DNA from: an uncultured Caldilineaceae bacterium
GTDB lineage: Bacteria; Chloroflexota; Anaerolineae; 4572-78; J111
DNA length: 33,689 bases
Direction of reading: 5' to 3'
Assembly (NCBI GenBank): GCA_964505845.1
Contig: CAZDMM010000003.1
Location: forward strand, 2,139-35,827
Both the position numbers and the translations under genes were made by a program. Every line of letters starts with the position of its first letter. The first letter of the stretch is position 1. The notes under the pieces are model-generated. The model had not been told where the DNA came from and did not search any database. It saw only the letters and a list, made by a program, of their open reading frames with translations. Positions 12,675-33,689 of this stretch are shown one piece after another.

Positions 12675-13361
12675 TTAACGGACTTTGGCGGCCAGTCCGG
12701 CCCGGTCCAAAATAACAATCTGGCGGCGTTTTACCTGGATCAGCCCCTCCTCGTCCAAACTGCGCAGCGCCCGATGAATCACGTCAGGCACCGTCCCCAG
12801 GCGCGCAGCCATCTCAGCCTGGGTAGCCCACTGGTAACGCTCGATCACGGTTTGCTGATTATCCCCCAATTGCAGCAGCAGCAGCTTGGCTAACCGGGCC
12901 GTCACCGAACGGAGCGACAGGTCTTCGATGAGTGAGATGGTATGGAGCAGGCGCCCGGCCAGCGCCCGGATAATCAGCCGGGCCATCGCCGGATACCGGT
13001 CCAGCAGCTCCAGCAAGGTTGACTGCTGAATGGCCCACAACTCGCACGCTTCCTGGGCAATAAGGGTGGCGGGATGAGGCTGCTCGGCAAAGACAGGGGC
13101 AATATTGACCGGCTGGCCCGGGCCGATAAAGTCAAGAATCTGCTCGCGCCCTTCGGCCGATAATTTAACCGCTTTGACCCAGCCTCGATGAACCAGGTAT
13201 AAGGCTTCGGGCAGGTCGCCTTCTAAAAAAACAACCTCACCGGGGTTATAACTGCGCAACTGAGTCGCCGCGCGCAGTTCATTCCAGCCGCTTTGATCCA
13301 ATACCTTAAGCCAGGGAATCTGGCTCAAATCTGCCAACGGGTCGGGTATATTGCCGGGCAT
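12675..13361 (-). CDS. Crp/Fnr-family regulator (cNMP-binding domain plus C-terminal HTH), no N-terminal Cys cluster
   Basis: Start moved to the ATG at 13361 (MPGNIPDPL...) with GGAGGAG immediately upstream. The longer ORF to 13667 would overlap the cytochrome gene. HTH motif ATQAEMAARLGTVPDVIHRALRSLDEEGLI. Confidence 0.8.
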   Translation of the reverse strand: MPGNIPDPLADLSQIPWLKVLDQSGWNELRAATQLRSYNPGEVVFLEGDLPEALYLVHRGWVKAVKLSAEGREQILDFIGPGQPVNIAPVFAEQPHPATLIAQEACELWAIQQSTLLELLDRYPAMARLIIRALAGRLLHTISLIEDLSLRSVTARLAKLLLLQLGDNQQTVIERYQWATQAEMAARLGTVPDVIHRALRSLDEEGLIQVKRRQIVILDRAGLAAKVR

Positions 13362-13437
13362 TAAAACTCCTCCACCGGCCCTCATGATAGCCCTGTCCGG
13401 CCGCTTCCGCAAAGAAGGTTGGGCAGCCCACCGGCGC

Positions 13438-14484
13438 TCAATCATCCTCCGCCTCAGCCGGCTCATCATCCTTATGCTCGCGTCCGGTGGGGTGGCAAGC
13501 GGCGCAGTTTTGAAAATTACGAAGACCTTCTTCCAGATGTTTGGACGCGATTTCGGCCGGATTGTGCTCGTGGCAGCCGTAGCAACTATACCGGGTAAAG
13601 GCGTCTGGGTGGCAAACTGCACAGGCCAGCGGCCGGCCCTCATTTTTGTGAGCCAGGGGAAAAACATGGCTGGCCAGGTTCAGCCTCACCTGGGCCCAGC
13701 TTGAAGGCCGGTGGCAGGCGTCGCAGGCGGTTCCGGGCCGACTCTGATGCACATCATCGGCGCGGTGGCAACTGTAGCAAGCACGCGGGGTATGGGTAAA
13801 CTGCCGCCCCGTATGACATTCCAGGCAGCCGGCCGCCGCATGGGCCCCTTCCAGGGGGAAGAAAGCCGCATGGCCAGCCGCATCCAGGCTCCCCCGGCCC
13901 CGGTGGCAAACAAGGCAGTCGGCCCCAAAGCCGGCCTGGTGCGCAGCCATAAAATCGGGCCGGGCCGCCGTATGACACTCCACGCAGCCGGACGCTTCAA
14001 AATCATAACCGGCCTGGGGATGGCAGGCCGCACAGGATATGGGCCGGCCGGCATAATCCACCGAATGTTGAATCAGGGAAAAATTGGTAGCGGCCTCATG
14101 CGAAAAGCTCAGGCTGTTAAGGCGGGTAATCCTGACCTCGCGCCCCAAATGGTCCGGGTGACAGGCCAGGCAGTGATCAACCTCTTGAAAAACCCCATGC
14201 AGTTTTACCGCCTGCTGTATCTGGCCGGCCACACTGGTATGACAGGCCAGGCACAGGCCGGCCATTGGCCCTTGCAGCGGTTGGTGGCAGCGGTTACATT
14301 CAGCCTCAAAATCGGCGTGATGTTTAAAGCCTTGCAGCGGCCTGTTTTGGGGGTGAACGGCGGTTAGCGGGCCGGGGCTGAACATTTGCGCCCCCACTCC
14401 CACCAGCGCCGCCGCTACGCCCAGGATCAGGATCAGGGTCAGGCCACAGCTCCAGGAGGAAAAGAATAGGTCGCGTTTTGACAT
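13438..14484 (-). CDS. Dodecaheme c-type cytochrome with an N-terminal signal/anchor and an acidic C-terminal tail
   Basis: Twelve CxxCH motifs counted by hand (CNRCH, CLACH x2, CAACH x2, CVECH, CLVCH, CLECH, CYSCH, CDACH, CAVCH, CYGCH) in about 350 aa. Hydrophobic segment LTLILILGVAAALVGVGA. ATG at 14484 is preferred over the GTG at 14502. Confidence 0.85.
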   Translation of the reverse strand: MSKRDLFFSSWSCGLTLILILGVAAALVGVGAQMFSPGPLTAVHPQNRPLQGFKHHADFEAECNRCHQPLQGPMAGLCLACHTSVAGQIQQAVKLHGVFQEVDHCLACHPDHLGREVRITRLNSLSFSHEAATNFSLIQHSVDYAGRPISCAACHPQAGYDFEASGCVECHTAARPDFMAAHQAGFGADCLVCHRGRGSLDAAGHAAFFPLEGAHAAAGCLECHTGRQFTHTPRACYSCHRADDVHQSRPGTACDACHRPSSWAQVRLNLASHVFPLAHKNEGRPLACAVCHPDAFTRYSCYGCHEHNPAEIASKHLEEGLRNFQNCAACHPTGREHKDDEPAEAEDD

Positions 14485-14531
14485 GGCCGGCTCCCCAGCC
14501 ACAACCTGCTTCTGGCTGGATAAAGCCCCGG

Positions 14532-14566: not shown

Positions 14567-15295
14567 TTAAGGGGGCCAGCCGCCATAATAGAGGGCGGCC
14601 CCAATGTGGATAGCAATTGTGGTGAACATGGTCAACCCCAGGGGCACGTGGAGGCGCCGCCACAACCTCAGCAGCCGTTGGGCGGTTTTGAGCGAGGCCA
14701 TCTGCCGCTCTAGCTCCTGGCGGCGCTGCAGCAGGCGCTCCAACTCTGGCGCATGGCGGCGCTCCGTTGGCTGCCCCCAGCAGGTCAGCCGCACCAGGGG
14801 GTTGGCCGGGGGCCTGCCAGTCTGAGCAGAAGCAACCGGGGCCGAATCCTCCAGTTTGGCTTGCAGTTGAGCCAGGCGGGCCGCTAATTCGTCGCGGCTC
14901 AGGGCGACTCCGGCCAGGGTGCGCGGCACGGCGGTATAAATGTAACGTCCCACAAAACCGCTCACCGTCACCAGCGCCGTCAGAGCCATAGCCAATCCGG
15001 CTAAACCGTTAAAGGTAAAGCCGGTATGGAGCAGCGCCAGCCAGGGGCCGACAATCCCGGTCACAATATGGCATGAGAGCCACAGTCGCACCGGCCCAAA
15101 GCGCAGCCAGCCCAGCCGCTTACGCAGAGAGTACAGCGTTTCGGTCAGCGCCATGCACAGCAGGCCCAGGCTGCCCAGGGCCAGACCGACCGGATGCCCC
15201 CCGGACGGCTCTGCCGCCAGCGCGTACACGGCATACCCCCCCAGCAGGAGAACAGCCTCGACAAAACTGATGAGAAGCTCAAGGCGTTCAATCAT
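14567..15295 (-). CDS. Integral membrane protein (about 5 TM) with two H-x13-H helices; candidate diheme b-type cytochrome
   Basis: 242 aa. His76/His90 in SCHIVTGIVGPWLALLH and His216/His230 in LHVPLGLTMFTTIAIH, both with 13 intervening residues. A charged coiled segment of about 90 aa precedes the last TM. No family name is assigned with confidence. Confidence 0.55.
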   Translation of the reverse strand: MIERLELLISFVEAVLLLGGYAVYALAAEPSGGHPVGLALGSLGLLCMALTETLYSLRKRLGWLRFGPVRLWLSCHIVTGIVGPWLALLHTGFTFNGLAGLAMALTALVTVSGFVGRYIYTAVPRTLAGVALSRDELAARLAQLQAKLEDSAPVASAQTGRPPANPLVRLTCWGQPTERRHAPELERLLQRRQELERQMASLKTAQRLLRLWRRLHVPLGLTMFTTIAIHIGAALYYGGWPP

Positions 15296-15325: not shown

Positions 15326-17326
15326 CTATTTTCTAAAGAGCGCAGCCACCACTATGGCTACCAGCAACAGGGCCAGGCTAAAGCCTATCCAACCCGGGCC
15401 AAATAACCCAACAGCCCGGCGGCCTGTCTCCGGCAGGAACACCACCGGCAAAACGCTCGTGGCCGCCGGCTGAACTGCGGCCACCGGCGTGGCCGGGATG
15501 GGGGTAGGCGGTGGAGGCCGGTTGTCGTCGTCATCATCATCCTGGTCAGAGGGGGTTGGGGTGGGCGTCGGCAGGGGGGTAGAGGTAGGCGCGGCCGCCG
15601 GCACCAGGACCTGTACTTGATTCGAGAGCCGGTCTACCCCCTGGTCAAAGTGCAGCACGGCCTGGTTAAAAATGGTCAACGGCGGCGGGTTGGCCGCGTT
15701 AACCTGAGCGCGCATGGTCATAACCCGCACATCGGCCGGGGCCAGCACCGGGATGATCCAGGTGACTACCTGGCCCGCCACCTGGGTAAAGCCGGCGTTA
15801 ACCTCCGGCGGGCCGAGGAGATTGACCTCAGGGGGCAGAGCATCCACCACCTGGACATTGGTGGCATTGCCGTTGCTTGACTGCGCCTGCGACAGGGTGA
15901 GGGTGAAGGTAAGCGCCTGTCCTACCTGGGCCTGATTGGTATTGACCCCTTTGGTTACCAGGGGGTCAATCATTGGGGTATTAACCGGGGTAAAGGTGGC
16001 GGCGGTATCGGTTAATCCCTGGCTGCTGGTAACCCAGCCGGTGTTGGTGATGACCGCGCCCAGCGGCGTGGCGCTGTCTACCTGCACCAGCATGGTCACG
16101 CTGGCCGAACTATTTGGGTTGAGCGCGCCCAGCGGCCAACTCACCACCCCGTTGGCGTCGGGGCCAAAGAAGGGCGCGCTGGCGCTGACAAAGATAGTAC
16201 CGGGCGGGGTCGTATCGGTGATGAGTACGTTGGTTAACAGGGTTGCGGAATTATTGGCGGCGGTTAAGGTATAAGTCAACAATCCCCCGGCCTGAACCGG
16301 GTTGGGTGCAGCCAGCTTGGTCAGGGCCAGGCTGCCACAGCCGCTTAACCAGGCCACCGCCTGGCGGGCTACCCTGGCGTTATCTTGTTTAAAATAGCCG
16401 GCCACCGCGCCGACCACTGAGTTCCAGTTGCTATCGGCAAAAAGGGCCACACAGCCGGCCCCATCATTAAAGGCCGCTGCCACCGGCGCCAGCAGCGGGT
16501 TCGCGTCGGCGTCGCTGGTAACAAGGGCATTGCTGGTGGGGGCTAAGGAGGAACTGGCCAGCAGTTCTACCCCATTCACTCCGCTGAGGATCGGGTGGCC
16601 GGCAAAGTTGTCGGCTTGATAAATTACCCAGGAGTTGGCCGGGCCGGGCGGGTCAAAATCAGTCGGGTCGCTGAGGGCCACGCCGCCCTGCTGGCTGTAG
16701 CCGTAAGCCTGGAACAAGGCTTCGGCGCCGGCCCTGAACGAGCCAAACTCACCCGAAAGCATTAAACCGTGACCGCTGCTGGTCCAGGCCCGGAGCACAG
16801 CGCCGTCGGCCGCCGTATAAGGAGAAGCCAGGGCAAAGCCTCGGGTTGACCCCTGCACGATCAAAACGGCCACACAAGGCGGAATCGCACCGGCGCTTAT
16901 GTCAATGGTTCCAACACTAAAACCGTTGACGGCCAGGTCGTTGACAAAATCGGCAATGTCGGTGGGGTCCTGGCCCCGGGAAATCTCAAAACCAACCACA
17001 GGGGGACTCATCGTCGTGCAGTCCACCGCCGTTACGGCCATGGGGGAGACTTCGCCGGCCGGAGCCAGCGCCCCCACCTCCAGCCAACCGGCGGTGGTTA
17101 GCTCCAGGGCCGGGGTGGCCGGAGGCTCCGATGTTGGGGGAGGGGGCATATTTTCCGGCGGCGGGGGTAAGGGCGTAACCGATGGCTCTGACGTGGCCGG
17201 CGGGGCCGGGGTAGAGGCCGATTCCTCTCCTGCCTGGTCGGGCGCTTGAGCGCCTACCGGCCCAACCATGAGGCCGAGGGTCAATAAAATAACCGGTAGG
17301 ATTAAACACAGCCGCTTGTTAATCAC
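15326..17326 (-). CDS. LPXTG-anchored surface protein with DUF11-type repeats and a Pro/Thr/Asp-rich stalk
   Basis: The C-terminus LPETG plus hydrophobic segment plus RK tail is a sortase signal. DUF11-like repeats (LTKLAAPNPVQAGGLLTYTLTAANNS...). The GTG at 17326 is proposed as start (M/VINKRLCLILPVILLTLGLMVGPVGAQA) with GGAGGAG just upstream. The ORF track instead starts at a TTG at 17386. Confidence 0.7.
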   Translation of the reverse strand: MINKRLCLILPVILLTLGLMVGPVGAQAPDQAGEESASTPAPPATSEPSVTPLPPPPENMPPPPTSEPPATPALELTTAGWLEVGALAPAGEVSPMAVTAVDCTTMSPPVVGFEISRGQDPTDIADFVNDLAVNGFSVGTIDISAGAIPPCVAVLIVQGSTRGFALASPYTAADGAVLRAWTSSGHGLMLSGEFGSFRAGAEALFQAYGYSQQGGVALSDPTDFDPPGPANSWVIYQADNFAGHPILSGVNGVELLASSSLAPTSNALVTSDADANPLLAPVAAAFNDGAGCVALFADSNWNSVVGAVAGYFKQDNARVARQAVAWLSGCGSLALTKLAAPNPVQAGGLLTYTLTAANNSATLLTNVLITDTTPPGTIFVSASAPFFGPDANGVVSWPLGALNPNSSASVTMLVQVDSATPLGAVITNTGWVTSSQGLTDTAATFTPVNTPMIDPLVTKGVNTNQAQVGQALTFTLTLSQAQSSNGNATNVQVVDALPPEVNLLGPPEVNAGFTQVAGQVVTWIIPVLAPADVRVMTMRAQVNAANPPPLTIFNQAVLHFDQGVDRLSNQVQVLVPAAAPTSTPLPTPTPTPSDQDDDDDDNRPPPPTPIPATPVAAVQPAATSVLPVVFLPETGRRAVGLFGPGWIGFSLALLLVAIVVAALFRK

Positions 17327-17382
17327 CCCACTCCTCCCCTCCCCAAAGATTTGGGGGCTTTCATGGCGCCTCTCCAATCTTG

Positions 17383-18504
17383 TCAATAACCTACCGCTCT
17401 AAACTCGTGGCGTGCAATCTGCTGGTTTAACGGGTCAATACAAATCTCAAAGGGCGTAGTCTGACTCCCCACGATGACTTCAGGATAGGCCGGGGCATAT
17501 TCGCCAAAACCGGCTACCTGCCCCTGGTCATCATAAGTAGTGGCCATGATAACCAAATAATCCGCCAGCGGAGAGCCTGTGTTTTGAACCTGGCCGCTCA
17601 GACAATACATGTTCGATTCACCGGCCCATTGGTTGATATTGGCAAATTGAAAATCCTGGCGGGGGAAATCGGTAGCCGGGGCCGATAGGGCCACCAGGTC
17701 AAGACGATAGATGGGCTGAGGGCTTTCGACTGTCAGCTCAAAGGGCACATGCGCGCCCGGCGGGATCACCTCGACCGGCACATAACTCAGGGTATCAATT
17801 TCATCTTCGATGACCTGGTCCTGGGCATCGTAAAAAATGCCAGACACTTCAACCGCCTGTTGGGGGCTGCCGGTACTGTTGATGAGTTCGCCCACCACCA
17901 CGGCGTTGCCTTCCTCAAGCGAGGTGTGAACCGCTCTAAAAGACCATCCAGGGACTTCGGAGTTGGGCTCTGGCTCAGAGTCTGGCGGCGGGGGAAGGGT
18001 GGCGGTAGGATTCGGCTCGATGGGCGGCAGGGCCGTTGGCTGCACCGGGAACGTGGGCGTAACTGCAACGGTGGGAGGCGCGGCCAGGGTGGGCTGGCCG
18101 GCGTCTGGCGAGGCCACTATCACCGGCTGGGCTGGGGCCTCGCTGCCCGGCTGCGGTATGGGGGTGGGGGTCAAGGTGGGCAGGTGTAAGGGGGGGGCGG
18201 CCCTGGCCGTCGCCGTTGGGGTAGCCGGGGCCGGTTGAGCCGGCGGCAGCGCGCCGGGCAAGGCGGCCGCCGGCTTTGCCTGGGCCACAGCAGCCGTGGT
18301 GGGGGTAAAAGTGGGCAAAAGGTTCTTAATGCGAACGGCCCCGGAGGGCGCCGCCCCACCCCACGAGCAGGCCAGCGAAACCAGGGCCGCCAGGGTGATG
18401 AAGACCGGCGACGGCAGCCATGCAGCGCCTCGCTCCGGGCCGGCGGCCTGAGAGTCGCTGTCGCCAGGGTTTTGAGCACCACAATTTTGACGATGGTTGA
18501 ACAT
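17383..18504 (-). CDS. Membrane-anchored Pro/Ala/Thr-rich protein with two C-terminal FxLYD-like beta domains
   Basis: 373 aa. TM segment VFITLAALVSLACSWGG, then a low-complexity linker of about 140 aa. Two related roughly 90-aa modules follow (GELINSTGSPQQAVEVSGIFYDAQDQVI; GQVQNTGSPLADYLVIMATTYDDQGQVA). The FxLYD assignment is tentative. Confidence 0.55.
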   Translation of the reverse strand: MFNHRQNCGAQNPGDSDSQAAGPERGAAWLPSPVFITLAALVSLACSWGGAAPSGAVRIKNLLPTFTPTTAAVAQAKPAAALPGALPPAQPAPATPTATARAAPPLHLPTLTPTPIPQPGSEAPAQPVIVASPDAGQPTLAAPPTVAVTPTFPVQPTALPPIEPNPTATLPPPPDSEPEPNSEVPGWSFRAVHTSLEEGNAVVVGELINSTGSPQQAVEVSGIFYDAQDQVIEDEIDTLSYVPVEVIPPGAHVPFELTVESPQPIYRLDLVALSAPATDFPRQDFQFANINQWAGESNMYCLSGQVQNTGSPLADYLVIMATTYDDQGQVAGFGEYAPAYPEVIVGSQTTPFEICIDPLNQQIARHEFRAVGY

Positions 18505-18534: not shown

Positions 18535-20409
18535 CTATTTCACAATGAGCGGTAGAAATACCTGGCCCAGCACCGCTGTCCCGGCGGCCGCCGCATCGTT
18601 GGCCGGGTTAAGGTCGGGTCTGGCGGCGCTTACGGCAACCGTGTTGGTGATCGTTCCCGCCTGGGTAGGGGTGGTCGCCAGGGTGACCACTGCCCCCGCG
18701 CCCTGGGTGAGGTCGCCCAGCGTGCAGGTGATGATACCTCCGGCGGGCCAACCGCAACTGCCCTGGCTGGGTACAATTGAAGCGATGCTTAAACCGGGCG
18801 GCAGGGTATCGCTGAGGGTAACGGCGGTGGCCGTAAAAGGGCCGGTATTCGTTACCAGCAGGGTGTAAGTTAAGGGTTGGCCGGCCAGGATAGAACCAGA
18901 CGAGGCGACCGGAGTCACCGACAGGTCAAAGAGCGATTGGAAACCGGCCAAAGCGTCAATCCGGCCATTGCCATAGGTATTATCTGCGCCCGCTGCACCC
19001 AAATCTACCACACTGTTCAACAGGGCCGTCTCCTGCTGGGCTACCGTCAGCGACGGAGCGGCATTCAAGAGCAAAGCCAGCACCCCGGCCACGTGCGGCG
19101 CGGCAAAAGAGGTGCCGGTGGCATTGGTATATGCTTCAAAACGGTCGGTGGTATGAACGCTGACCCCCGGCGCCACCACCTCTGGAAAAACCGTCCCCTC
19201 ATTACAGCCGGGGGGTGAGGTGGGGCGCGGCCCGCGGCTGCTGCCGGTATAAATGACGCTGCTGTTATTGATAGCGCCTACGGCAAAAGCTTCTGGATAG
19301 TTGGCCGGGCTATAACTGGTTGAACTGGTGGGGCCGCTGTTGCCGGCGGCAAAAATGGGCAAGATGCCGGCGGCGCGCAGGGCTTGCAGGTCGGGCTGAA
19401 ATTCCAGGTTGCACCCGTTGGGGTTGCCATAGGTCCAGGAGTTATTGACCACCTGCGGCGCGTCTGCGGTAGCCGGGTTGTCATCCGGGTCAAGCAGCCA
19501 TTGAAAGCCCTGGTGAAAGGCGGCGGTTGTGCCCGTTCCATCATCTTTAAAGACTTTAACCGCAATCCAGTGGGCCTGGGGAGCAATGCCAAAGGCAACG
19601 CCGCCATCTTCTCCGCCCACCATCAGGCCCATAGTGCGGGTGCCGTGGCCGCTGCTGCTCCCGGCCAGGTCGGTGGGTGTGGATGGATGCTGGTTGTACG
19701 GGTCGTACCAGCTATTGGAGCCGCCCCGCCACTTGGGGCCAAGGTCTGGGTGAGCGCCGTCTACCCCGGTATCCATGTTGGCTATGACCAGGCCCTGCCC
19801 TTGATAGCCCAAATCCCACAACGCCTGAACATTAATAAGCGTTAGATTGGGTTGGGCGGCCTGGGCGCCGATTTGCCCCGGCTCTGCCGGCAAGAGCGGC
19901 GGGGCCTGGATCGTTTCATTGAGGCTGATCTTGAGCACCTCGGGCCGGGCCGCCAACTCTTGAATCACGCCCGGAGGGGCTGAAACGGCCAGGCCGTTGA
20001 AAATCCAAAAATACGTGGCCGGGCCGGCCTGTCCCTGGGCCTGCCGTTGGGCAAGCCAGGCCCTGAGCGCCCGCTGGCTGAGAGCGGCTTTGGCCTGCAG
20101 GGTTTCTACCACCCGGTTAAGCCGGGCCGCCCGGTTGAGCCGGGCCGCGTCGGAGGCCAACCGGGGCAAATCTACCTGCTCTTTGAGGGTAACAATCACG
20201 CTCAACTGCTCACCGGCCTTGAGCGCCCGCAGCGCCGCCTGCACCGGGGGCGTTAGAGTGGCCGCCTCCGCAGGAGCGCCCCCGGCGGTGAAGGCCGGCA
20301 GCGCAGCCTGAACCTGGGCGGCCGGCCGGTGAAGCGGCAGGAGCACAAACAGCAAAGCCAGCACTACGCCCCCCACGAGGGCCTTCTCGCCCAGGCTGCC
20401 ACCGGTCAT
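18535..20409 (-). CDS. Secreted subtilisin-like serine protease (S8) with an I9-type propeptide and a C-terminal DUF11 repeat
   Basis: Catalytic triad contexts NMDTGVD, HGTRTMG and GTSFAAPHVAG. DUF11-like LTYTLLVTNTGPFTATAVTLSDTLPPGL...SQGSC. The start codon lies 3 nt after the copCD-like stop. Confidence 0.85.
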   Translation of the reverse strand: MTGGSLGEKALVGGVVLALLFVLLPLHRPAAQVQAALPAFTAGGAPAEAATLTPPVQAALRALKAGEQLSVIVTLKEQVDLPRLASDAARLNRAARLNRVVETLQAKAALSQRALRAWLAQRQAQGQAGPATYFWIFNGLAVSAPPGVIQELAARPEVLKISLNETIQAPPLLPAEPGQIGAQAAQPNLTLINVQALWDLGYQGQGLVIANMDTGVDGAHPDLGPKWRGGSNSWYDPYNQHPSTPTDLAGSSSGHGTRTMGLMVGGEDGGVAFGIAPQAHWIAVKVFKDDGTGTTAAFHQGFQWLLDPDDNPATADAPQVVNNSWTYGNPNGCNLEFQPDLQALRAAGILPIFAAGNSGPTSSTSYSPANYPEAFAVGAINNSSVIYTGSSRGPRPTSPPGCNEGTVFPEVVAPGVSVHTTDRFEAYTNATGTSFAAPHVAGVLALLLNAAPSLTVAQQETALLNSVVDLGAAGADNTYGNGRIDALAGFQSLFDLSVTPVASSGSILAGQPLTYTLLVTNTGPFTATAVTLSDTLPPGLSIASIVPSQGSCGWPAGGIITCTLGDLTQGAGAVVTLATTPTQAGTITNTVAVSAARPDLNPANDAAAAGTAVLGQVFLPLIVK

Positions 20410-22584: not shown

Positions 22585-22605
22585 GATAGTATGGGAGACA
22601 TACCT

Positions 22606-22634: not shown

Positions 22635-22692
22635 TGACCCTGCCCCACCCTTAAAGAACTAAAAAAGGACTATCATCAGACCGGTTCTGGCG

Positions 22693-22710: not shown

Positions 22711-22737
22711 AACACAAAAAAGACTATTTACAGCCGG

Positions 22738-23337: not shown

Positions 23338-23378
23338 CAAACCATCTCCGGCAGGCCAGCCTACTTTTCAGACAGTTT

Positions 23379-24506: not shown

Positions 24507-25013
24507 CTACTGCACCGGCACGTGCTCAAGGCGCGCTGCGCCAACCCGCACTGTGACCAGATCCCCCGGCCTGATCACCCCACCCTCGTTGACCAGGATT
24601 TCATTGTAAATGACGCCGGCCTTAAGCTGGCTCTTGGAGGAGTGATCGTGAAAGGGCCGGTCAACAATCCGCCCGGTGGCCTCGTTCATCAAGGCAGGCG
24701 GGGTTTTGGTGTCATGCACAATCACGGCTTTGTCCGGGTCTACCACCCGGTAGCGCATATCAATCATCCCACCCCCGGCGGTGCTGCTGACGCGAATGAG
24801 GCGCAGGCCGGTTTCAGCGGTAAAGAGGGTTTGCGAGAGGCCCTGCAGCGGGTCATGCGCCGCTGCATCATGCCTGAAGCTAACCAGGCTGGGCCAGGTC
24901 AGGATCATGCCGATGATCAACCCGGTCAGGCAGAAGATTGCGCCTGCCAGGCCGATTAAACCCCACAAGTCGCGGGGCGGCTCAGAGGGCTTGGTAAAAG
25001 TATTCGAGGCCAT
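24507..25013 (-). CDS. Membrane-anchored hypothetical protein
   Basis: 168 aa. GGAGG lies 6 nt upstream of the ATG. One N-terminal TM (LWGLIGLAGAIFCLTGLIIGMIL), then an extracytoplasmic domain of about 120 aa. The stop is 3 nt before the CopC start. Confidence 0.6.
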   Translation of the reverse strand: MASNTFTKPSEPPRDLWGLIGLAGAIFCLTGLIIGMILTWPSLVSFRHDAAAHDPLQGLSQTLFTAETGLRLIRVSSTAGGGMIDMRYRVVDPDKAVIVHDTKTPPALMNEATGRIVDRPFHDHSSKSQLKAGVIYNEILVNEGGVIRPGDLVTVRVGAARLEHVPVQ

Positions 25014-26873: not shown

Positions 26874-26912
26874 AGTCTGTATCTCCTTCTGCATAGGGAT
26901 CGTTCCCGGCGT

Positions 26913-28196
26913 TTATTGACCACAGCTTCCCGGCGGGTCAACCCTAACCAGGGTTGCCAGGCCGCCAAAGCCTTCGTCAAAGTTTTGAAACTCGTTGAGG
27001 GCGTGGCTGTGCCAGGGAAAGTAGAACTCACCGCACTCGTTGAGCAGGGTATTGCCGGGTGGAAAATCGGCCTGCACGCCCAGGTCGGGGTCGCCGCTGA
27101 ACCAGGTTAACCCATCTTTGAAGACCAGGTTCAGCAAACCCGGATAAGTGACCTGGTCTCTAATCCGGGGAGGATTGCCGTTAGCGCCCCATTGTTCCAC
27201 ATTGATCCAGCGAAAGAGCAAATCATAGGTTTGGCCCGCGCCGATGGTGGTGCTGAAATTTTCATAGGGCAGGCTTAACAGCCGGCCATCCCGGCCGATG
27301 ACCCGCATGTGGTTGCCGTGCGGGTGAAAGGGGTGGTTCTCCAGGCCGGCGTTGATATAGCGAATGAGGGCAGGGCGGCCCAAATTGTTGGGGTCAACAT
27401 CTGCCTTCACCTCCACCAAGGCTCCGTAAGGTTGGTGGGGCAGCCAGGGTGCATGATTGGGGGCGATAGAATCGGGGAAGGAGCGCCCGTTGACGGTCCA
27501 GTAGTGGTCTTTGCGGTGGGTCACATCAAAGGTTTGGTTTCGCTCCACGGCCTGATGCAGGGCCGGGTCCAAATCGTGGATCAGCAGCAAAAATTCTCGC
27601 CCCGGTTCAAACTCGGTGGAGGCGTTGTTGTAGGCAAAGTTAGCCCCCATGGCCGGGCGCACAATTAAAGCGCCGTACAGGCCCATCTCTACCTGCTTGT
27701 GGGGATCGGTGCCGCTTTCATAAAGATAGGTGCCCGGCCGGTTGGCGGTAAAGGTGTAGCTGGCCGAGCCACCGGCGGCGTTAGCCTCGGCGGTAAAAAG
27801 CCCGGCGGCATCGCCGCTGGCTGTAACCCCGATTTGCCCCGGAAAAATAATGGAGGTGGCTTCGGGCAGGTGGTTGGTGAGGTTGATGGTGACGGTATCG
27901 CCTTCATTGACGCACAACACCGGGCTGGGCACCTGAAAATTTCCCCCGGCATCGCTGTTGGCAAATGTCCACATAAAGAGGCTGTTGCCGTCGGGGGTTT
28001 GCATGTGGCCGGTTTGGGTTTCAAGGTTAAAGGTAGGGCCGGTGGTGCAGATGTCGGACAGGGTGGCCGGGGCAGCCGCCGGAGCCAGCCGGGTCCGGCC
28101 GGCGGCCAGAGCGGGCCAGAGCGTTACGCCCAGCACGCCGATGAGCAGCACCAAGCCCAACCTGACTTTTTTAAGGCGCATCTTATGAAGCATCAT
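26913..28196 (-). CDS. Two-domain multicopper-oxidase-like protein B: domain 1 has no ligands; domain 2 has HPFHPHG and HSH (T1 Cys replaced by Ser)
   Basis: 427 aa. Sec-type signal. AAGGAG upstream; start is 28196 or 28193. Motifs and their codons verified on the sequence (27318-27335; 27003-27011). Confidence 0.75.
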   Translation of the reverse strand: MMLHKMRLKKVRLGLVLLIGVLGVTLWPALAAGRTRLAPAAAPATLSDICTTGPTFNLETQTGHMQTPDGNSLFMWTFANSDAGGNFQVPSPVLCVNEGDTVTINLTNHLPEATSIIFPGQIGVTASGDAAGLFTAEANAAGGSASYTFTANRPGTYLYESGTDPHKQVEMGLYGALIVRPAMGANFAYNNASTEFEPGREFLLLIHDLDPALHQAVERNQTFDVTHRKDHYWTVNGRSFPDSIAPNHAPWLPHQPYGALVEVKADVDPNNLGRPALIRYINAGLENHPFHPHGNHMRVIGRDGRLLSLPYENFSTTIGAGQTYDLLFRWINVEQWGANGNPPRIRDQVTYPGLLNLVFKDGLTWFSGDPDLGVQADFPPGNTLLNECGEFYFPWHSHALNEFQNFDEGFGGLATLVRVDPPGSCGQ

Positions 28197-28231: not shown

Positions 28232-29608
28232 TTATGGGCGCGTCCGCCCAAAGGTTTGATTGGGCCTGGTTTGCGGGGCAAGCGTGTCTGCGCCCTGGTA
28301 CACCCGCACCTGGGTAATCTGGCCGCCCAGGGCCACGGCATTGCCATCAATATCTTCCAGAGACCCCGCCTGGGCCAGGTTATCGTTTTCAACTGCGCCG
28401 TTGACCAGCCGCTGGGGGTGATGGTTTTTGAACCAGTACACGTTGTAAGGCCCGTTGCTGTCGCTGCCTCCCGGCAAGCTGGAATTATAGCCCGGCGCTT
28501 CAAACAGAATATCGCGGGCCTCACCCGGCCCAATGTAAATGGTGTGGGTTTGGTAGGCCAGCGGGCCTAAGAAGGTAGCATCGTGGCCGACCACCCTCAT
28601 GTGCAAACCCTGCATTTGCATAGTTTGCTGCTCGTAGCCCAAGTTAGCCATGCGCAGCAAAATGGTCTCGCCCTCGTTGGCCTGGATCAGCGAGGAGACC
28701 GGCTGCCGGCCTGCCAGCTCGGTGCCAACAATGTCATCGTCGGTTAAGAGCGTATCGGGGTAAGAGCGGCTGTTGATCACCCAGTAGTTGGGGTCGTAGT
28801 TAGACCAGACAAACTCTTGCACGTTGATCAGATTATCGTGCGGGGTGGTATCAATTTCATTCAGCAGCAGGGTGTACTCCCGGTCAAAGGCGGTGCTGCC
28901 GTCGGCATAAGCCTGGTTGGGCGCACCGGCCGGCCGGATAAAAACAATGCCATCCATGCCCATCTGCACATGCTCCGAGTCTTCAAAGTGGCAGTGGTAC
29001 ATGTAAGTGCCCGGCACTTTGGGCCGGAAGAAGTAAGGAAATTCGCGGGACGGGGGTACGGCAATAGACACTTCCGGCACCCCGTCAAAAACGGCGTTGG
29101 GGTTGCGGAAACCGTGCCAGTGGATGGTGTGGGAGTCATCCAGGTCTGGCCGCCCCACCAGGCCGGCGTTGAGCACGGTAATGTACAGGGTGTCGTTCTC
29201 GTTCACCCCGATAATAGGGGCCGGGCCTCGCACTTTGCCTTTAACCCGATTAATGGCCTCGGCAATAGTATCTGACAGCGGTACCTCCACAAAGCCAAAA
29301 GCATACAAACCATTATGCTCATCCGGTGTGGCAAAGGGATCACCCCCGGTGTTGCCGGGGTCAGGAAAAATGCGCCGGCCCGGCAAAGAGATGTAACCGT
29401 CGGTGGCCGCCAGGCGCAAATTAAGCGTGGCGGCGGCCGGCCGGGCCGGGGGGAGCGCCGGCCCGGCCATGCCGGCCGGCCGGGCCAGGGCGGCCTGAGC
29501 GGGCGGCAGGTGGCTCATGGCCGACAGGACAGCCAGCAGCGTCCCTTTGGCCCCCAATTTAAGAAAGTCGCGCCGGCTAAATCTGCGAGGGGTAAATTTC
29601 TCAGTCAT
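28232..29608 (-). CDS. Tat-exported two-domain multicopper-oxidase-like protein C: domain 1 has HTIHWHG and HCHx5Hx4M; the domain 2 His motif is replaced by QTMQMQG
   Basis: 458 aa. AGGAGG upstream of the ATG. Twin-arginine signal SRRDFLKLG. Motif codons verified on the sequence (29114-29131; 28955-28996; 28610-28627). Confidence 0.8.
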   Translation of the reverse strand: MTEKFTPRRFSRRDFLKLGAKGTLLAVLSAMSHLPPAQAALARPAGMAGPALPPARPAAATLNLRLAATDGYISLPGRRIFPDPGNTGGDPFATPDEHNGLYAFGFVEVPLSDTIAEAINRVKGKVRGPAPIIGVNENDTLYITVLNAGLVGRPDLDDSHTIHWHGFRNPNAVFDGVPEVSIAVPPSREFPYFFRPKVPGTYMYHCHFEDSEHVQMGMDGIVFIRPAGAPNQAYADGSTAFDREYTLLLNEIDTTPHDNLINVQEFVWSNYDPNYWVINSRSYPDTLLTDDDIVGTELAGRQPVSSLIQANEGETILLRMANLGYEQQTMQMQGLHMRVVGHDATFLGPLAYQTHTIYIGPGEARDILFEAPGYNSSLPGGSDSNGPYNVYWFKNHHPQRLVNGAVENDNLAQAGSLEDIDGNAVALGGQITQVRVYQGADTLAPQTRPNQTFGRTRP

Positions 29609-29651
29609 CGTAAGCTTCCTCCTGTAGCTGCTTGTTTAGAGCGACCATTTG

Positions 29652-29692
29652 CCCTCCCCCGTCCCCGCCCCTGAAGGGGCAGGGGGGAGAGG
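29652..29692. repeat. GC-rich imperfect hairpin (CCCTCCCCCGTCCCCGCCCC TGAA GGGGCAGGGGGGAGAGG) downstream of the giant gene
   Basis: Core GCCCC-TGAA-GGGGC extended by C-run/G-run pairing with bulges. There is no adjacent U-tract on the minus strand, so a terminator role is unproven. Confidence 0.4.
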
Positions 29693-29741
29693 TAAGCCTC
29701 GCTTAAGTCCCTATCCAGAGACCTCTGTAGGTGGATAGGCT

Positions 29742-32700
29742 CTAAGGCCGGTCAATTCCGTCTATATCGTTACCACCCAGGCCAAAGGCGGCGCCGTCAA
29801 AGTAGAGGCTGCCCGAGGTGCAGGCGGTATTCGGCCCGGTGGTAGGCGCAGCGCAGATAAAGACATCGTCATTCTGGGCGTCTACCCCAGGATTGGGCGG
29901 GATAAAAGGCGCCGCAACGTCGCCGGTGGTGCTCAGGTAAATATCGCCGCCAAAACTGGAGACGGCGTCAATATTCTCACCGGCCGCGCCCAGCCCCACG
30001 TCAGAGCCATCAAAGTACATGCCCCAGGCCCCGCTGGTGTAGAAGTTGGGCGTGGCGGGGGTAAAGGCCAGAATATCCTGGCCCACGCCAGACACGCCGC
30101 CGGGCACAGTTACCGGCCCTCTGGTAGAGATCAACAGCGTGCCGTCAGGGAGCAGGTCTATAGCGTCCACATCCTCGCTGGGGGTGGTCAGGCCGACGTC
30201 CACCCCTCGCAGGAACATGCTGAAGGTTCCGGCCGTAGTCGCGCCATAGGCGCTGCCGGTAAATTTAACAATATCGGAGTCATCCACCGGGTCCAGGATG
30301 TTATCGCCGTTGAGATCAAGGCTGGCCGCCGACTCAAAGGAGATGAGGATGGCGCTGCCGCCGTCAACGATATCGAAGGCGTCCAAATCCTGCCCGCCGT
30401 TGATACCTACGTCAGAGCCATCAAAGACCATCATGAAGGTATCGGTGGCATCGTTAAAGCCGAGGATGTCTTCATCACGCACGCCGCTGACCGCGCCAAC
30501 CGTATAACCGGCCACGCCGCCGTTGTTGACCAGCGAGAGATAGAGATCGGCCACCGGTAAGCTGCCAGCCGGGTTGACCGTGACCGTGACCAGGTCGCTG
30601 GCGGTAAGCTGGCCATCATAGGCCGTCAGGGTGAGGGTGTAGAGACCGGCGGCGGCAAAGGTGGCGGTAGGGGTGATAACGTTGGGGTTAGGGGCAAAGG
30701 TAACTGCCCCCGGCCCGCCGGTTACCGTCCAGGTGATGATGAGGGTGGGGTTGACCAGGCCGTCGTCGTTGACGGTCCCGCTCAGATTGACTGCCGCCGG
30801 CAGGGTAATAGTTTGGGCCAGGCCGGCCTCAACCACCGGGGCCAGGTTAAACGAGCCGCCGGCGCTGCAGCCGGGAGCCGGGGCCAAGCCGGGCTGCTCA
30901 TCCGCCCCGATGTCGTACAGATCGTTGAAAGGCCGCCCGTCGTGGTCATAATCATCACAGGCCGCCGCCGCGCCGCTGCCCAGGGGGTCTAGCGCAGCTC
31001 CGGTATCAACGGCCGGCGCCGCCGCCTGAGTATGATAGTTGCCCTGCAAGGTGATTGGCTGCGGAACGGTGACCATGATGACGGTAATAAAGTCGGGTTC
31101 CATGCGGAAGGGCACGGCGCTGAGCTGGGTAACGTAATGGCTGGGGAACAGGGCGTTCAGATCACCGCAGGCCAGATTGGTGGCATGCGGGGCAAAGCTT
31201 TCGGTCACATCGTTAGGGTCGGTTAGCAGCGAGGCGGTGGGGTGCAGCACCTGGCCCGCGCCGCCGGCAAAAACCTGCAAATCAAAGATGCTGTTGAACA
31301 GCAGGTTGGCCCCATCCCAGGTGTAAGCCTGATTCTCACAGATGATATTGTTGAACATCACCGGGTCTACGTAACCGCCCGGCCCGATGCCAAGATAAGC
31401 CTCAAAACCGGCGCTGTAGGTTTCAACGGCCACGCCGGCCCCGTTGGGAATATGGTGGCGGCCATTGGCGTCTTCGGAGGTGGAGGTATTGGCGTTGCGG
31501 GCGATGGTGTTGTTAACAATGGTCACGGCCGAGGCGTCGTCCAGGGCAATGCCGCCGCCAAAATCGGTGGAGACGTTGTTGACGATGATGTTGTTGCTGA
31601 TGTTGATGGCAAAGTCGAGCGGCTGCAGCAGCCTGACCCCGCCGCCGTCGTCGTTGGACATGTTGCCCTGGATCAGGTTGTGGTCAATGTCAACCTCGCC
31701 CGCGCCGGCGGTGAAAGTGGCCGGGGCTACCGGCTGCTCGCCGGCAATCATCACCCCGCCGCCTTCGTCAAAGGCGTTGTTAAAATAGACCAGGTTGTGG
31801 TGGATGCGGCCGCGCCGGCTCAGGCCAAAGTGGGAGATACCGCCGCCGTATTCGCCGGAGTAGTTGCCGCAGATTTCGTTGTGGGCAATTTCGTAATCGT
31901 TGGCGCCATTAAAGATACCGATGCCGCCGGCCAGGCTGAAGCCGCCGTTGTTGAGGATGCGGTTGTGATGGATGCGAATGTTATCGTTATTGTTGTCACC
32001 CCGGTACGGTTCACCCAGGGTAATACCGCCGCCGAAGTTGCCGCCGTTGCTCTGGATGACGTTGTTGCTAATTACCGCAAACTCGCCGTTGAGGTCCACG
32101 TGGACGCCGCCGCCAACATCCTGCTCGTCGCGGGCGTTGGAGATGCGGAAGCCGTCAATTTGCGGGTGCAGGAGTGCAGTAAACTGGCCGGGTGCGCCGC
32201 CGACGATATTGATGCCGACAGGGTCGAGGATAAAGCGCTGATCGAGCACGGAACCGCCGGTACCAAACCCGTCGTTTACGCCCGGACCGTAGCCTTGCAG
32301 GGTAACGGCCTTGTTCAAGTTGACCGCGCCAAAGTGCTGACCGGGGGTCAGGACAATCAGGTCGCCCGGGGCGGCTGCGTCAATCGCGGCCTGGATCGAG
32401 TCGCCGGGGTCAACGATAAAGTCAGGCGTCGCCCCGACGTGGAAGGTGATGCCGGTCTGGCTGATCTTGCCGTTGCCGGCAGTCACCAGCAGTTGGCCGG
32501 GGCCGTTGGCAAAGCCGGGCGGAATGGTCACCTGAATGGATGTATCCGACCAACTGGATACCGCCAGCGGGCTGCCGTTAATCGTCACCGCGCCGCTGCC
32601 CTGAGTGGCCCCAAAGCCGGCGCCGGTGATGGCAATGAGGGAGGGGCTGCCGGCATTGCCGTAGGGTGGGTCCACCACAAAGACCTGCGGCTGGTCGGCG

Positions 32701-33689
32701 GCCGGCAGGCACAGGGCCGGCTGGCCAAACTGGGAACCAGGGAAGGCGGTAAAGGCGGTAATGGGGAAGAGGGCCACGTCGGCGAAGGTGGTTTTGCCCG
32801 GCCAGACGTCAAAGACAAAGGTGATGGTCTGGTAGTTAGGGTTGAAGTTAGGGCTGGGATTGTCCGGGTCACCGGGGTCGTTGCCGATCACCCGGTACAT
32901 CCCCGGGCAAACGCCGGAGGGGATGGGACAATTAGCCGTGTAAGTGGAAGGCAGCACGACTTCAAAAATACCGTTCTGGTCGGTGGTGAGCATGGTGATC
33001 AAGCGGCCGCTAAAGTCGCGGATGCCGACGGAGGTGTTGGGGATGCCCCGCTTCTCGCCGTAGTAGATCAGGCCGGGGTCGGTCTCGATGTTGAGATCGT
33101 CCAGCAGGAAGCCGTAGATGCGGCCAGCCGTCGGCACGGCTTCGCTGGTGGTCCAGTTGCGGGTCGCCGCGTCCCCATCGTCGTCACTATCGCTGAAGAG
33201 GAAGAAATCGGCGGCCGCGTTCTGCTGGTCTTGCAGAGTGACCAGCCTTTTGTTACACAGCGGCATGTTCTGACCGTCATAGGGGTTGCGCGAATCGCTG
33301 ACCAGGTGGAGCGGGCCAACACATTCCGCCGGCGGGAAGGCCGGGATAAATTCGTTGCCTTCGTCGGTGTTCTGGTCTTCTTCTTTGAGGATTTGGTAAT
33401 AGGGCGGCGTCACCACCTCGACGACGTAGTCGCCAGCAGGCAAGCCATCTTCTTCCACCGCTCCCTCTGCGCCCAAGAAGGGGGTCCAGTAACTCTCAAA
33501 GGCGTAGCCGCCATCAAAGACGCCATCCTTAACCTCGTTAGAGATGTTGGGGACTTCGATACAGTTGGGGCCTAAGTTCAACGGGTCGGGCAGCGGCGCA
33601 CCGTTGGAATCAAGCGCGTCACAGCCAGTGGGATGTTCCCAGGAGTCCGTCTGGACTTCATTCAGGAGAACATCATCGCTCGACGGTGT
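29742..33689 (-). CDS. Giant secreted/surface protein, 5'-truncated by the window edge: SdrD/Cna-B-like and IPT/TIG domains, parallel beta-helix (PbH1) repeats, a PKD-like domain and four C-terminal repeat modules of about 65 aa
   Basis: I translated 33582-33689 by hand. The frame stays open to the window edge (TPSSDDVLLNEVQTDSWEHPTGCDALDSNGAPLPDP-LNLGPN...), so the TTG at 33581 is not the start. PbH1-like repeats NxIxxNxxxxxGGG(I/V) occur at least 6 times. IPT-like motif SLIAITGAGFG...VTINGSPL...VTIPPG. Confidence 0.8.
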   Translation of the reverse strand, partial: TPSSDDVLLNEVQTDSWEHPTGCDALDSNGAPLPDPLNLGPNCIEVPNISNEVKDGVFDGGYAFESYWTPFLGAEGAVEEDGLPAGDYVVEVVTPPYYQILKEEDQNTDEGNEFIPAFPPAECVGPLHLVSDSRNPYDGQNMPLCNKRLVTLQDQQNAAADFFLFSDSDDDGDAATRNWTTSEAVPTAGRIYGFLLDDLNIETDPGLIYYGEKRGIPNTSVGIRDFSGRLITMLTTDQNGIFEVVLPSTYTANCPIPSGVCPGMYRVIGNDPGDPDNPSPNFNPNYQTITFVFDVWPGKTTFADVALFPITAFTAFPGSQFGQPALCLPAADQPQVFVVDPPYGNAGSPSLIAITGAGFGATQGSGAVTINGSPLAVSSWSDTSIQVTIPPGFANGPGQLLVTAGNGKISQTGITFHVGATPDFIVDPGDSIQAAIDAAAPGDLIVLTPGQHFGAVNLNKAVTLQGYGPGVNDGFGTGGSVLDQRFILDPVGINIVGGAPGQFTALLHPQIDGFRISNARDEQDVGGGVHVDLNGEFAVISNNVIQSNGGNFGGGITLGEPYRGDNNNDNIRIHHNRILNNGGFSLAGGIGIFNGANDYEIAHNEICGNYSGEYGGGISHFGLSRRGRIHHNLVYFNNAFDEGGGVMIAGEQPVAPATFTAGAGEVDIDHNLIQGNMSNDDGGGVRLLQPLDFAINISNNIIVNNVSTDFGGGIALDDASAVTIVNNTIARNANTSTSEDANGRHHIPNGAGVAVETYSAGFEAYLGIGPGGYVDPVMFNNIICENQAYTWDGANLLFNSIFDLQVFAGGAGQVLHPTASLLTDPNDVTESFAPHATNLACGDLNALFPSHYVTQLSAVPFRMEPDFITVIMVTVPQPITLQGNYHTQAAAPAVDTGAALDPLGSGAAAACDDYDHDGRPFNDLYDIGADEQPGLAPAPGCSAGGSFNLAPVVEAGLAQTITLPAAVNLSGTVNDDGLVNPTLIITWTVTGGPGAVTFAPNPNVITPTATFAAAGLYTLTLTAYDGQLTASDLVTVTVNPAGSLPVADLYLSLVNNGGVAGYTVGAVSGVRDEDILGFNDATDTFMMVFDGSDVGINGGQDLDAFDIVDGGSAILISFESAASLDLNGDNILDPVDDSDIVKFTGSAYGATTAGTFSMFLRGVDVGLTTPSEDVDAIDLLPDGTLLISTRGPVTVPGGVSGVGQDILAFTPATPNFYTSGAWGMYFDGSDVGLGAAGENIDAVSSFGGDIYLSTTGDVAAPFIPPNPGVDAQNDDVFICAAPTTGPNTACTSGSLYFDGAAFGLGGNDIDGIDRP

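Follow-up and report, generated by a model that had tools for sequence, protein, structure and literature searches.

A copper-oxidase cassette of Chloroflexota and Actinomycetota with its copper ligands divided between two of three two-domain paralogs: a candidate heterotrimeric multicopper oxidase

We analyzed a 33,689-nt stretch of DNA from an uncultured Caldilineaceae bacterium (contig CAZDMM010000003.1; hereafter the window, whose coordinates are used for all positions). Its right-hand 21 kb, from 12675 to the window end, carry a cluster of copper-related and cell-surface genes. The core of this cluster (29742-33689 down to 18535) encodes a giant surface protein, three paralogous multicopper oxidase (MCO) proteins that we call MCO1, MCO2 and MCO3, a 168-residue membrane protein (p168), a stand-alone CopC, a CopC-CopD fusion and a subtilase of the S8 family. 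The explanation that we favor, and that we regard as reasonably probable, is that this cassette encodes a cell-envelope MCO working as an obligate heterotrimer of the three two-domain paralogs. An earlier, sequence-only description of this DNA (the original prediction) had spoken of "split oxidase paralogs", and this was borne out, as the ligand sets of the paralogs are complementary and are conserved in their orthologs.

The ligands were surveyed in a first alignment of the window proteins with orthologs and in a second one that took 44-48 sequences per paralog from 46 loci. The N-terminal domain of MCO1 carries the ligands of a type-1 copper site (H160, C206, H213, and M218 or M216) as well as four histidines of a trinuclear cluster (H163, H165, H205 and H207), which lie in the motifs HTxHWHG and YHCH..EH..M. 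This pattern is kept in 44 of 45 orthologs. The C-terminal domain of MCO1 is ligand-free, and its orthologs have Gln, Thr or Ser at the His positions. MCO2 has lost every copper ligand of its N-terminal domain, and its C-terminal domain contains H291 and H293 in the motif PFHPHG and H396 and H398 in an H-S/N-H motif that lacks the Cys; all but one of 47 orthologs (46/47) keep the four-His pattern. MCO3 has a core of two cupredoxin domains with neither cluster ligands nor a type-1 Cys, to which a DUF11 domain and a C-terminal domain are appended. Its ligand columns are empty in the 48 orthologs examined, except for a vestigial His at 282 (42/48). In both MCO2 and MCO3 the equivalents of the type-1 ligands are non-ligand residues. 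The eight cluster histidines are complete only for MCO1 and MCO2 together (4 + 4 = 8) and never occur in one chain. Hence, none of the three proteins can form the cluster alone or as a homotrimer.

The fold class of the three proteins is clear. All of them have matches in the Cu-oxidase_3/_2/Cu-oxidase group of Pfam families. The AlphaFold2 (AF2) model of MCO1 (pLDDT 82) has 3g5w_A as its best PDB match (E 1e-23, TM 0.77), with 2zwn next. By sequence, too, the nearest solved structures are these two, which are also the best PDB sequence matches of MCO2. These two entries are type C two-domain MCOs, namely the blue copper oxidase of Nitrosomonas europaea (3g5w) and the metagenomic mgLAC (2zwn). 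Their HTIHWHG and YHCH..EH segments align with domain 1 of MCO1, and their HxxHxH/H-x-H segments align with domain 2 of MCO2. Two-domain MCOs are trimers, in which each cluster is shared by neighboring protomers, one providing domain 1 and the other domain 2; in type C the type-1 site belongs to the N-terminal domain (PMC13151041).

The cassette oxidases thus share with the type C enzymes two cupredoxin domains per chain, a type-1 site with HxxHxH/HCH in the N-terminal domain (MCO1) and HxxHxH/H-x-H without a Cys in the C-terminal domain (MCO2). The cluster of the type C enzymes is expected at the subunit interface (PMC13151041), which is also where we predict it in the cassette. However, the known type C MCOs assemble from three copies of a single gene product, each trimer having three type-1 sites and as many clusters, whereas in the cassette the half-sites reside on two gene products and the third paralog has none, so that a cluster could form only in a mixed ring with one active site. 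Furthermore, the cassette subunits are 100-300 residues longer, one of them has DUF11 or Ig-like tails, and the export signals are unlike among the subunits. MCO1 bears the twin-arginine translocation (Tat) motif RRDFLK, the R12/R13 pair of which is nearly invariant in orthologs; according to their translations, MCO2 and MCO3 have ordinary Sec-type signal peptides without a twin-arginine motif. Judged by its sequences, the cassette fits the type C kind except that the eight His are not all in one chain, and it would be best described as a variant of that kind.

Since MCO1 and MCO2 between them contribute the eight His of exactly one cluster, and since a three-membered ring cannot close without a third subunit, we propose an obligate alpha-beta-gamma heterotrimer. 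The presence of exactly three paralogs fits the three-membered ring of the parent family. In the proposed enzyme, the three proteins would close a six-domain ring, as in the homotrimeric type C MCOs, with copper at only one of the three subunit interfaces. A substrate would be oxidised at the sole type-1 site in domain 1 of MCO1 (H160, C206, H213 and Met). The electrons would then pass via the H205-C206-H207 triad to a trinuclear cluster held by H163/H165/H205/H207 of MCO1 and H291/H293/H396/H398 of MCO2, and O2 would be reduced to water. MCO1 would be the catalytic subunit and MCO2 the partner subunit. MCO3 would serve as a copper-free structural subunit that completes the ring and holds the complex at the cell surface via its DUF11 or Ig-like tail. 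MCO1 would be exported folded via Tat, and MCO2 and MCO3 via Sec; such a split, combined with an interfacial cluster, suggests that the cluster would be assembled and metallated outside the cell. We infer that this need for extracellular metallation is the reason for the constant company of CopC, CopC-CopD and p168, and, from their co-occurrence and from what is known of CopC and CopD, that the His-rich p168 and the two CopC-containing proteins would act as factors of copper capture and delivery. The S8 protease would serve in maturation or processing, and the giant Ig/beta-helix protein would be a surface partner.

In order to examine how stable the association of these genes is, p168 was used as a central probe with one genome per species, which gave 52 loci, 46 of them distinct. 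The loci were mapped by tblastn and by open reading frames (ORFs), and gene order was judged where the contig was long enough. In nearly all 46 loci the core order is giant protein, MCO1, MCO2, MCO3, p168, CopC, CopC-CopD, S8. The loci belong to two phyla, Chloroflexota and Actinomycetota, and their hosts include Anaerolineae, Caldilineaceae, Thermoflexus, Chloroflexia, Solirubrobacteraceae, Nocardioidaceae and cultured Cellulomonas and Nocardioides. Within this order, MCO1, MCO2 and MCO3 follow one another at short distances in nearly all loci (35 and 18 nt in the window), and the trio is never broken up where the contig is long enough. MCO1 homologs are numerous, and those with a source name come from metagenome-assembled genomes (MAGs) of Chloroflexota, the closest of them being Chloroflexota/Anaerolineae. 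Their neighborhoods read giant protein, MCO1, MCO2, MCO3, a protein of about 166 residues, CopC and CopC-CopD, followed by an S8 or a DUF11 protein.

Conservation of this order across two phyla argues that an envelope copper oxidase and the copper-handling genes dedicated to it are truly inherited as a unit. The copper-handling genes that the original prediction had placed beside an extracellular oxidase are thus upheld by the same gene order in nearly all of 46 species-level loci. The conservation of the neighborhood as a whole, on which that prediction depended, holds for the giant protein, the three oxidases, p168, CopC-CopD, S8 and, less regularly, the stand-alone CopC, which is often missing in Actinomycetota. 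It does not hold for the cytochrome pair discussed below or for the Crp-family regulator at the distal end. The latter, which the prediction had counted as a cluster member, has no match in any related locus, be it a cassette or a cytochrome locus, and it lacks an N-terminal Cys cluster. The regulators near the orthologous cassettes that we examined are LuxR/GerE response regulators and histidine kinases. Two other genes of the window extend the cassette in one phylum only: orthologs of the FxLYD protein occur only in L002/L008, L009, L010 and L060-L062, all of them Chloroflexota loci, and orthologs of the DUF11-LPETG protein are likewise confined to Chloroflexota loci. The two proteins are a Chloroflexota-specific extension of the cassette.

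CopC (PF04234) and CopD (PF05425) both score above their cut-offs. The CopC domain of the CopC-CopD fusion has the canonical N-terminal His (AAAH|A) and DGH Cu(II) site, both conserved in orthologs. The fusion, which nearly all loci contain, probably imports or handles copper. The stand-alone CopC also begins with a His after an AxA cleavage site, but it is a conserved variant that reads D-G-D where canonical CopC reads D-G-H; it further has a conserved His in a loop closer to the N-terminus and a C-terminal membrane anchor. Orthologs with D-G-D are found at L002:15215-15715, L003:15134-15685 and L006:14950-17058. In L006 and L060 the stand-alone CopC is fused to LysM and CAP domains.

In nearly all loci p168 is located between MCO3 and CopC/CopC-CopD. 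It combines a single membrane pass with a small extracytoplasmic beta-sandwich, H100, H124 and H164 are invariant, and its uncharacterised family comprises 1899 representatives (sequence clusters). It has no match in Pfam or NCBIfam, and a search with its AF2 model (pLDDT 86) gave no PDB fold match at E <0.01; the matches at or above this E value were generic Ig-like ones.

The S8 subtilase (PF00082, 170.6 bits) shows DTG at 213, HGT at 255 and GTS at 432, contains a DUF11 domain, ends with the tail VFLPLIVK and has orthologs in most loci. Nearly all loci have p168, CopC-CopD and S8 together and in this order. CopC-CopD and S8 even form a single ORF in one Chloroflexota locus (L061:888-4445) and in two loci of Solirubrobacteraceae (L013:10263-14318 and L015:10188-14315), and this fusion in two phyla argues for a joint function at the membrane surface. 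The giant protein, the first gene of the cassette, has an ortholog of 1300-2500 residues upstream of MCO1 in nearly all loci. The window contains more than 1315 of its residues; the gene has no in-frame stop upstream of 33581 and runs off the window end, so that the N-terminus lies beyond it. Its domains are SdrD_B/CarboxypepD_reg-like Ig folds, TIG, a right-handed beta-helix, PKD and C-terminal repeats. DUF11 is common to MCO3, S8 and the LPETG protein of the window, and in L032 (Actinomycetota) MCO3 and S8 share, instead of DUF11, a C-terminal domain related to the end of the giant protein of the window. Such shared tails suggest a common anchoring site.

Several points speak against the heterotrimer. 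The MCO1-MCO2-MCO3 complex, the geometry of its predicted interface included, is something that we infer from the genes. The adjacency of the paralogs, though conserved, would fit separate functions as well. The use of Tat by one subunit and Sec by the others complicates assembly, although it does not forbid it, and a copper-resistance operon, too, would show the triad of MCO, CopC and CopD. What p168, S8 and the giant protein would do is argued from co-occurrence only, and p168 has no structural relative. Finally, a fusion of MCO2 and MCO3 in a single 1466-aa ORF of an Actinomycetota MAG (L032:5420-9820), which might have been taken as evidence of interaction, was given no weight, because the sister genome L036 has MCO2 and MCO3 in different frames and the fusion is possibly a sequencing indel. 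An apparent joining of the giant protein and MCO1 in one stop-to-stop frame of L055, a high-GC MAG labelled Pseudomonadota, was not trusted either.

One trinuclear cluster at one domain interface is the arrangement of ceruloplasmin. The ring predicted here from the genes would likewise place its only trinuclear cluster at a single interface among six cupredoxin domains, which relates it to the six-domain MCOs (ceruloplasmin, and MnxG of the Bacillus Mnx complex). However, the latter are single polypeptides that keep several type-1 sites, whereas the cassette has three chains and one type-1 site, and no sequence kinship between them closer than the general MCO fold was found. A step from homotrimeric two-domain to single-chain six-domain oxidases has been proposed on evolutionary grounds. 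We tentatively suggest, with somewhat less conviction than for the heterotrimer as such, that the cassette might be a living example of this step, that is, the natural equivalent, on three chains, of a ceruloplasmin-like oxidase with six domains. The obligate alpha-beta-gamma ring of two-domain cupredoxin paralogs would have one type-1 site and one interfacial cluster, and it would be assembled outside the cell and loaded with copper by CopC, CopC-CopD, p168 and S8. It would be widespread in Chloroflexota and Actinomycetota and, in the lineage of the window, might exchange electrons with a conduit of cytochrome b and a 12-heme cytochrome. In the literature, six-domain MCOs are listed as a class of their own (PMC13151041, PMC7036934).

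We found no description of a heteromeric or heterotrimeric two-domain MCO, or of this cassette, in the open literature, which was the part searched (subscription papers were outside the search). The same search returned no description of MCO with CopC/CopD in Chloroflexi or of MCO and multiheme clusters in Anaerolineae. Two arrangements that it did return are not paralog heterotrimers: the proteolytic alpha-alpha-alpha' trimer of Nmar_1354 (PMC11761707) and the small subunits of fungal laccases (PMC10443355). If our explanation is true, the cassette represents a new quaternary design for two-domain MCOs, in which one active site spans two subunits and the third is copper-free, as the literature searched describes only homotrimers. 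It would also provide an experimentally accessible model for the origin of single-cluster six-domain oxidases from trimeric two-domain ancestors. In addition, it would tie the p168 family (about 1900 sequence clusters), CopC/CopC-CopD and the subtilase to the assembly of extracellular copper clusters, a poorly understood process. As the cassette is present in cultured Cellulomonas and Nocardioides, the proposal is directly testable.

Among the alternatives, an island of copper homeostasis or resistance is unlikely, though the least unlikely of them. In such an island, the oxidase or oxidases would turn Cu(I) into Cu(II) outside the cell, CopC would bind the Cu(II) and CopD would move it, as in copABCD/pcoABCD, and the other genes would be envelope accessories. 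An oxidase with CopC and CopD is indeed the core of the classical cop/pco operons, and the cassette resembles them in clustering these three. All three oxidases have copper_res_A (TIGR01480) as their best NCBIfam match, but their scores of 53-60 bits compare with a cut-off of 479. CopA and PcoA, however, are three-domain, Met-rich proteins, whereas the cassette oxidases are a two-domain, type C-like trio with at most 4 Met in any 40-residue window, that is, without a Met-rich segment. The cassette also differs in that its CopC and CopD are fused, that CopB, CopRS and PcoE are missing, and that the giant surface protein, p168 and S8, which have no counterpart in cop/pco, are constant members.

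The original prediction had excluded a detoxification island on the grounds that the hallmarks of classical resistance were missing; we consider such an island improbable rather than excluded. We confirmed with Pfam and NCBIfam that there is no P-type ATPase, CsoR, CopY, CueR or CopB among the window ORFs; CopRS is not found in the window either, and the regulators in the neighbors examined are of the LuxR/GerE type. The lack of CopB carries less weight, since CopB is an outer-membrane protein and perhaps dispensable in these lineages. It should be noted that the resistance explanation concerns the role of the cassette only and is compatible with a heterotrimeric architecture.

Another parallel to the copper-handling genes is offered by ycnKJI of Bacillus subtilis, a copper-acquisition locus in which YcnJ is a CopC-CopD fusion and YcnI a membrane-anchored Cu(II) protein. 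In the cassette, too, a CopC-CopD fusion, with the canonical N-terminal His and D-x-H, stands beside a small single-pass membrane protein that has conserved His. p168 resembles YcnI in topology, but it has no DUF1775/YcnI match or structural relative, and the cassette, unlike ycnKJI, lacks a YcnK-type regulator and is tied to the oxidase trio.

Less likely still is an integrated respiratory module. According to this explanation, which follows the original prediction, all 21 kb are one extracellular unit in which cytochrome b and the 12-heme cytochrome carry electrons from the quinone pool, or from a donor in the cytoplasm, to the oxidase at the surface, and which either reduces O2 outside the cell or harvests electrons from Mn(II), Fe(II) or organics. 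All genes are indeed co-directional with short spacers. The heme count of the prediction was exact: the cytochrome has 12 CxxCH motifs, none of which varies in 9 orthologs, and residues 5-37 form a hydrophobic segment at its N-terminal end. Its homologs number 2229, mostly without a source name; the named ones are Chloroflexota/Anaerolineales. The putative cytochrome b next to it has two His pairs, H76/H90 and H216/H230, the members of each being 14 residues apart, in predicted helices. The window protein has no Pfam match, and its homolog in L081 matches PF01292 (cytochrome b561) weakly (E 1.9e-5, 24.9 bits against a cut-off of 30.1). Both genes are present in about 50 metagenome loci, in most of which the membrane protein lies directly upstream of the multiheme cytochrome.

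The question is whether this pair belongs to the cassette. Neither of its genes was found in the 46 cassette loci. No ORF with at least 3 CxxCH motifs was found within 10 kb of p168 in the 46 cassette loci, but as the window cytochrome itself is 10.5 kb from p168 and hence at the edge of this reach, the relation was also searched from the cytochrome side. The pair lies downstream of CopCD-S8-FxLYD-DUF11 only in the window and in its three closest loci, L060-L062. The cytochromes of these loci are only 53-57% identical to that of the window, so that the adjacency has survived considerable divergence, and this is a point in favor of an integrated module. In about 50 other metagenome loci, however, the pair occurs without any cassette gene. 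Wiring by a multiheme cytochrome is therefore not a general property of the cassette, and we rejected the pair as part of its core. This independence of the cytochrome module weakens the integrated explanation, as do the Crp regulator, which is not conserved, and a strong promoter-like site in the 153-nt spacer, which hints at several transcripts. The usual electron donors of type-1 copper sites in oxidases are small substrates, and no case is known to us in which a multiheme cytochrome takes this part. We read the pair as a separate electron-transfer module that became a neighbor of the cassette in one Anaerolineae-like sub-lineage. A functional link between the pair and the oxidase in that sub-lineage is possible, but it would be secondary.

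Away from the cassette, in the two more distant loci examined, the pair has other company. At L081:8082-11203 and L104:7758-11392 it follows the gene of a Pyr_redox_2 flavoprotein (a pyridine-nucleotide oxidoreductase), which also speaks against integration with the oxidase. This arrangement suggests a three-gene module of uncultured, probably Chloroflexota, bacteria, in which Pyr_redox_2, the cytochrome b-like protein and the multiheme cytochrome lead from a cytoplasmic nucleotide donor to an extracytoplasmic cytochrome. An anchored 12-heme c-type cytochrome beside a putative di-heme cytochrome b is reminiscent of MtrC/OmcA-type and monoderm multiheme conduits. The MtrC/OmcA matches are weak, though (19 bits for the window cytochrome against a cut-off of 209), and the cytochrome c7/c3 models also matched weakly. 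The window pair differs from these conduits in that it follows a pyridine-nucleotide oxidoreductase in the two other loci examined and stands outside the conserved copper cassette. The closest long contig carries a heme neighbor of another kind (L002:1-1216), namely a fused cytochrome b (776 aa, including an EB_dh domain) and a c-type cytochrome. About 1 kb downstream of these two comes a small gene, and then the giant gene.

It is very unlikely that the paralogs act separately, with MCO1 alone as a blue-copper carrier or NirK-like enzyme and MCO2 and MCO3 as copper-poor binding or structural envelope proteins that are adjacent by chance: copper-free cupredoxin-fold proteins do exist (FtsP/SufI, for example, is among the weak NCBIfam/PDB matches) and nitrite reductases are among the structural neighbors, but the HxxHxH and HCH motifs of MCO1 are complete, as in an oxidase, and depart from the NirK pattern, and its four His would be partnerless in a homotrimer. 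Moreover, the retention by MCO2 of exactly the four complementary His in 46 of 47 orthologs from two phyla is hard to explain without a metal site, and the trio stays together wherever the contig is long enough.

These comparisons have consequences for annotation. Homologs of MCO2 and MCO3 should not be counted as independent laccases, and a neighboring multiheme cytochrome should not by default be considered a part of the oxidase system.

The features of the region are listed in Table 1. Domains were assigned by Pfam and NCBIfam searches of the window ORFs, and start codons were picked by ribosome-binding sites. The searches agreed with the domains named in the original prediction: CopC, CopC with CopD, Cu-oxidase_3/_2 in three proteins, Peptidase_S8, and cNMP_binding with HTH_Crp_2. 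Its surface modules were found as well, with DUF11 in three proteins according to Pfam and the LPETG motif, hydrophobic stretch and RK tail visible in the translation.

Table 1. Features of the cluster in the right-hand 21 kb of the window
Feature	Position	Strand	Basis
Crp/Fnr-family regulator	12675-13361 (likely start M103; longest ORF 12675-13667)	minus	cNMP_binding + HTH_Crp_2
12-heme c-type cytochrome, membrane-anchored	13438-14502	minus	12 CxxCH; Pfam Cytochrome_C7 and CIII
Putative di-heme cytochrome b membrane protein	14567-15295	minus	~5 transmembrane (TM) helices, two His pairs
DUF11x2-LPETG protein, cell-wall-anchored	15326-17386	minus	Pfam, TIGR01451; LPETG + TM + RK tail
FxLYD-domain protein, proline-rich linker	17383-18504	minus	NCBIfam NF038353
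S8-DUF11 subtilase	18535-20409	minus	Pfam; D213/H255/S434 triad
CopC-CopD fusion	20413-22584	minus	Pfam CopC + CopD; ~12 or more TM segments
Spacer upstream of CopC-CopD, 153 nt	22585-22737	minus	Promoter scan, palindrome
dupB, full-length small secreted protein	22738-23340	minus	ORF; ends IFLPVIFKP
dupA, truncated copy of small secreted protein	23379-23918	minus	ORF; without C-terminal tail
Stand-alone CopC	23946-24503	minus	Pfam CopC 67.9 bits; TM segment 151-175
p168, 168-aa single-pass membrane protein	24507-25013	minus	Cassette marker; no Pfam/NCBIfam family
MCO3	25059-26894	minus	Pfam Cu-oxidase_3 + DUF11
MCO2	26913-28196	minus	Two-cupredoxin oxidase paralog; alignment with orthologs
MCO1	28232-29608	minus	Pfam; two cupredoxin domains; Tat signal
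Giant/MCO1 spacer, 133 nt	29609-29741	minus	RNA fold
Giant Ig/beta-helix surface protein	29742 to beyond 33689	minus	Pfam/NCBIfam domains; open at window end

From 12675 to the window end the ORFs form an unbroken co-directional run on the minus strand. This run had been described as fourteen consecutive genes; the co-directionality was confirmed, but the count is 15, because a perfect tandem duplication of 495 nt yields two copies of a small secreted protein. With the preferred starts, the spacers are 76, 82, 30, 56, 30, 3, 153, 41, 27, 3, 45, 18, 35 and 133 nt. Two of them depend on the choice of start: the 56-nt junction of the DUF11 and FxLYD genes becomes a 4-nt overlap if a TTG start is used, and the 82-nt spacer between the cytochrome and the membrane protein shrinks to 64 nt with a GTG start. 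The ORF coordinates reproduce the 3-nt junctions previously reported at 20409/20413 and 24503/24507.

The two copies of the duplication (22826-23320 and 23410-23904) are 100% identical at a spacing of 584, which means either a very recent event or an artefact of MAG assembly. Their products, dupA and dupB, match no Pfam or NCBIfam family and have only one ortholog, in L006 (62% identity); they are accessory and stand outside the conserved core. The small secreted protein and the S8 orthologs share a tail, [VIL][FY]LP[VLIM][VI]x[KR], at the extreme C-terminus with no hydrophobic anchor after it. It is seen in the window at 18535-18560 (S8) and 22738-22765 (dupB), and in L002/L008, L009, L010, L061, L062 and L006:17181-17786. 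A regular-expression scan for this tail returned 11 matches among the 6507 ORFs of all collected loci, and 10 of the 11 are orthologs of S8 or of the small protein. The tail could serve in Chloroflexota as a tag for sorting or processing that has yet to be described.

The 153-nt spacer upstream of CopC-CopD contains the best promoter-like site of the region, TTAACA-17-TATAAT at 22634-22606 on the minus strand, which agrees with a sigma-70-like consensus at 11 of 12 positions (a consensus match only). The same spacer contains an 18-nt palindrome, AAAAGAACTAGTTCTTTT, at 22693-22710, of which there is no second copy in the window. By these signals, the spacer may be an internal transcription start with an operator. 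The giant/MCO1 spacer folds into a G+C-rich hairpin of about 17 bp without a U-tail (-58.5 kcal/mol, z = -2.9 against shuffles). This predicted structure may be an element of RNA processing, attenuation or stability that sets different levels of the giant protein and the oxidases. Taken together, the promoter-like site and the hairpin, which are consensus and folding results only, suggest that the 21 kb are probably read as more than one transcript.

An Rfam scan of the window gave no family match. The rest of the window consists of plus-strand ABC-transporter genes and a GntR/FCD regulator. This region, which is unrelated to the cassette, is headed at 258-4162 by two tandem NMT1/THI5-like binding proteins followed by a 647-aa double-SBP_bac_3 protein.

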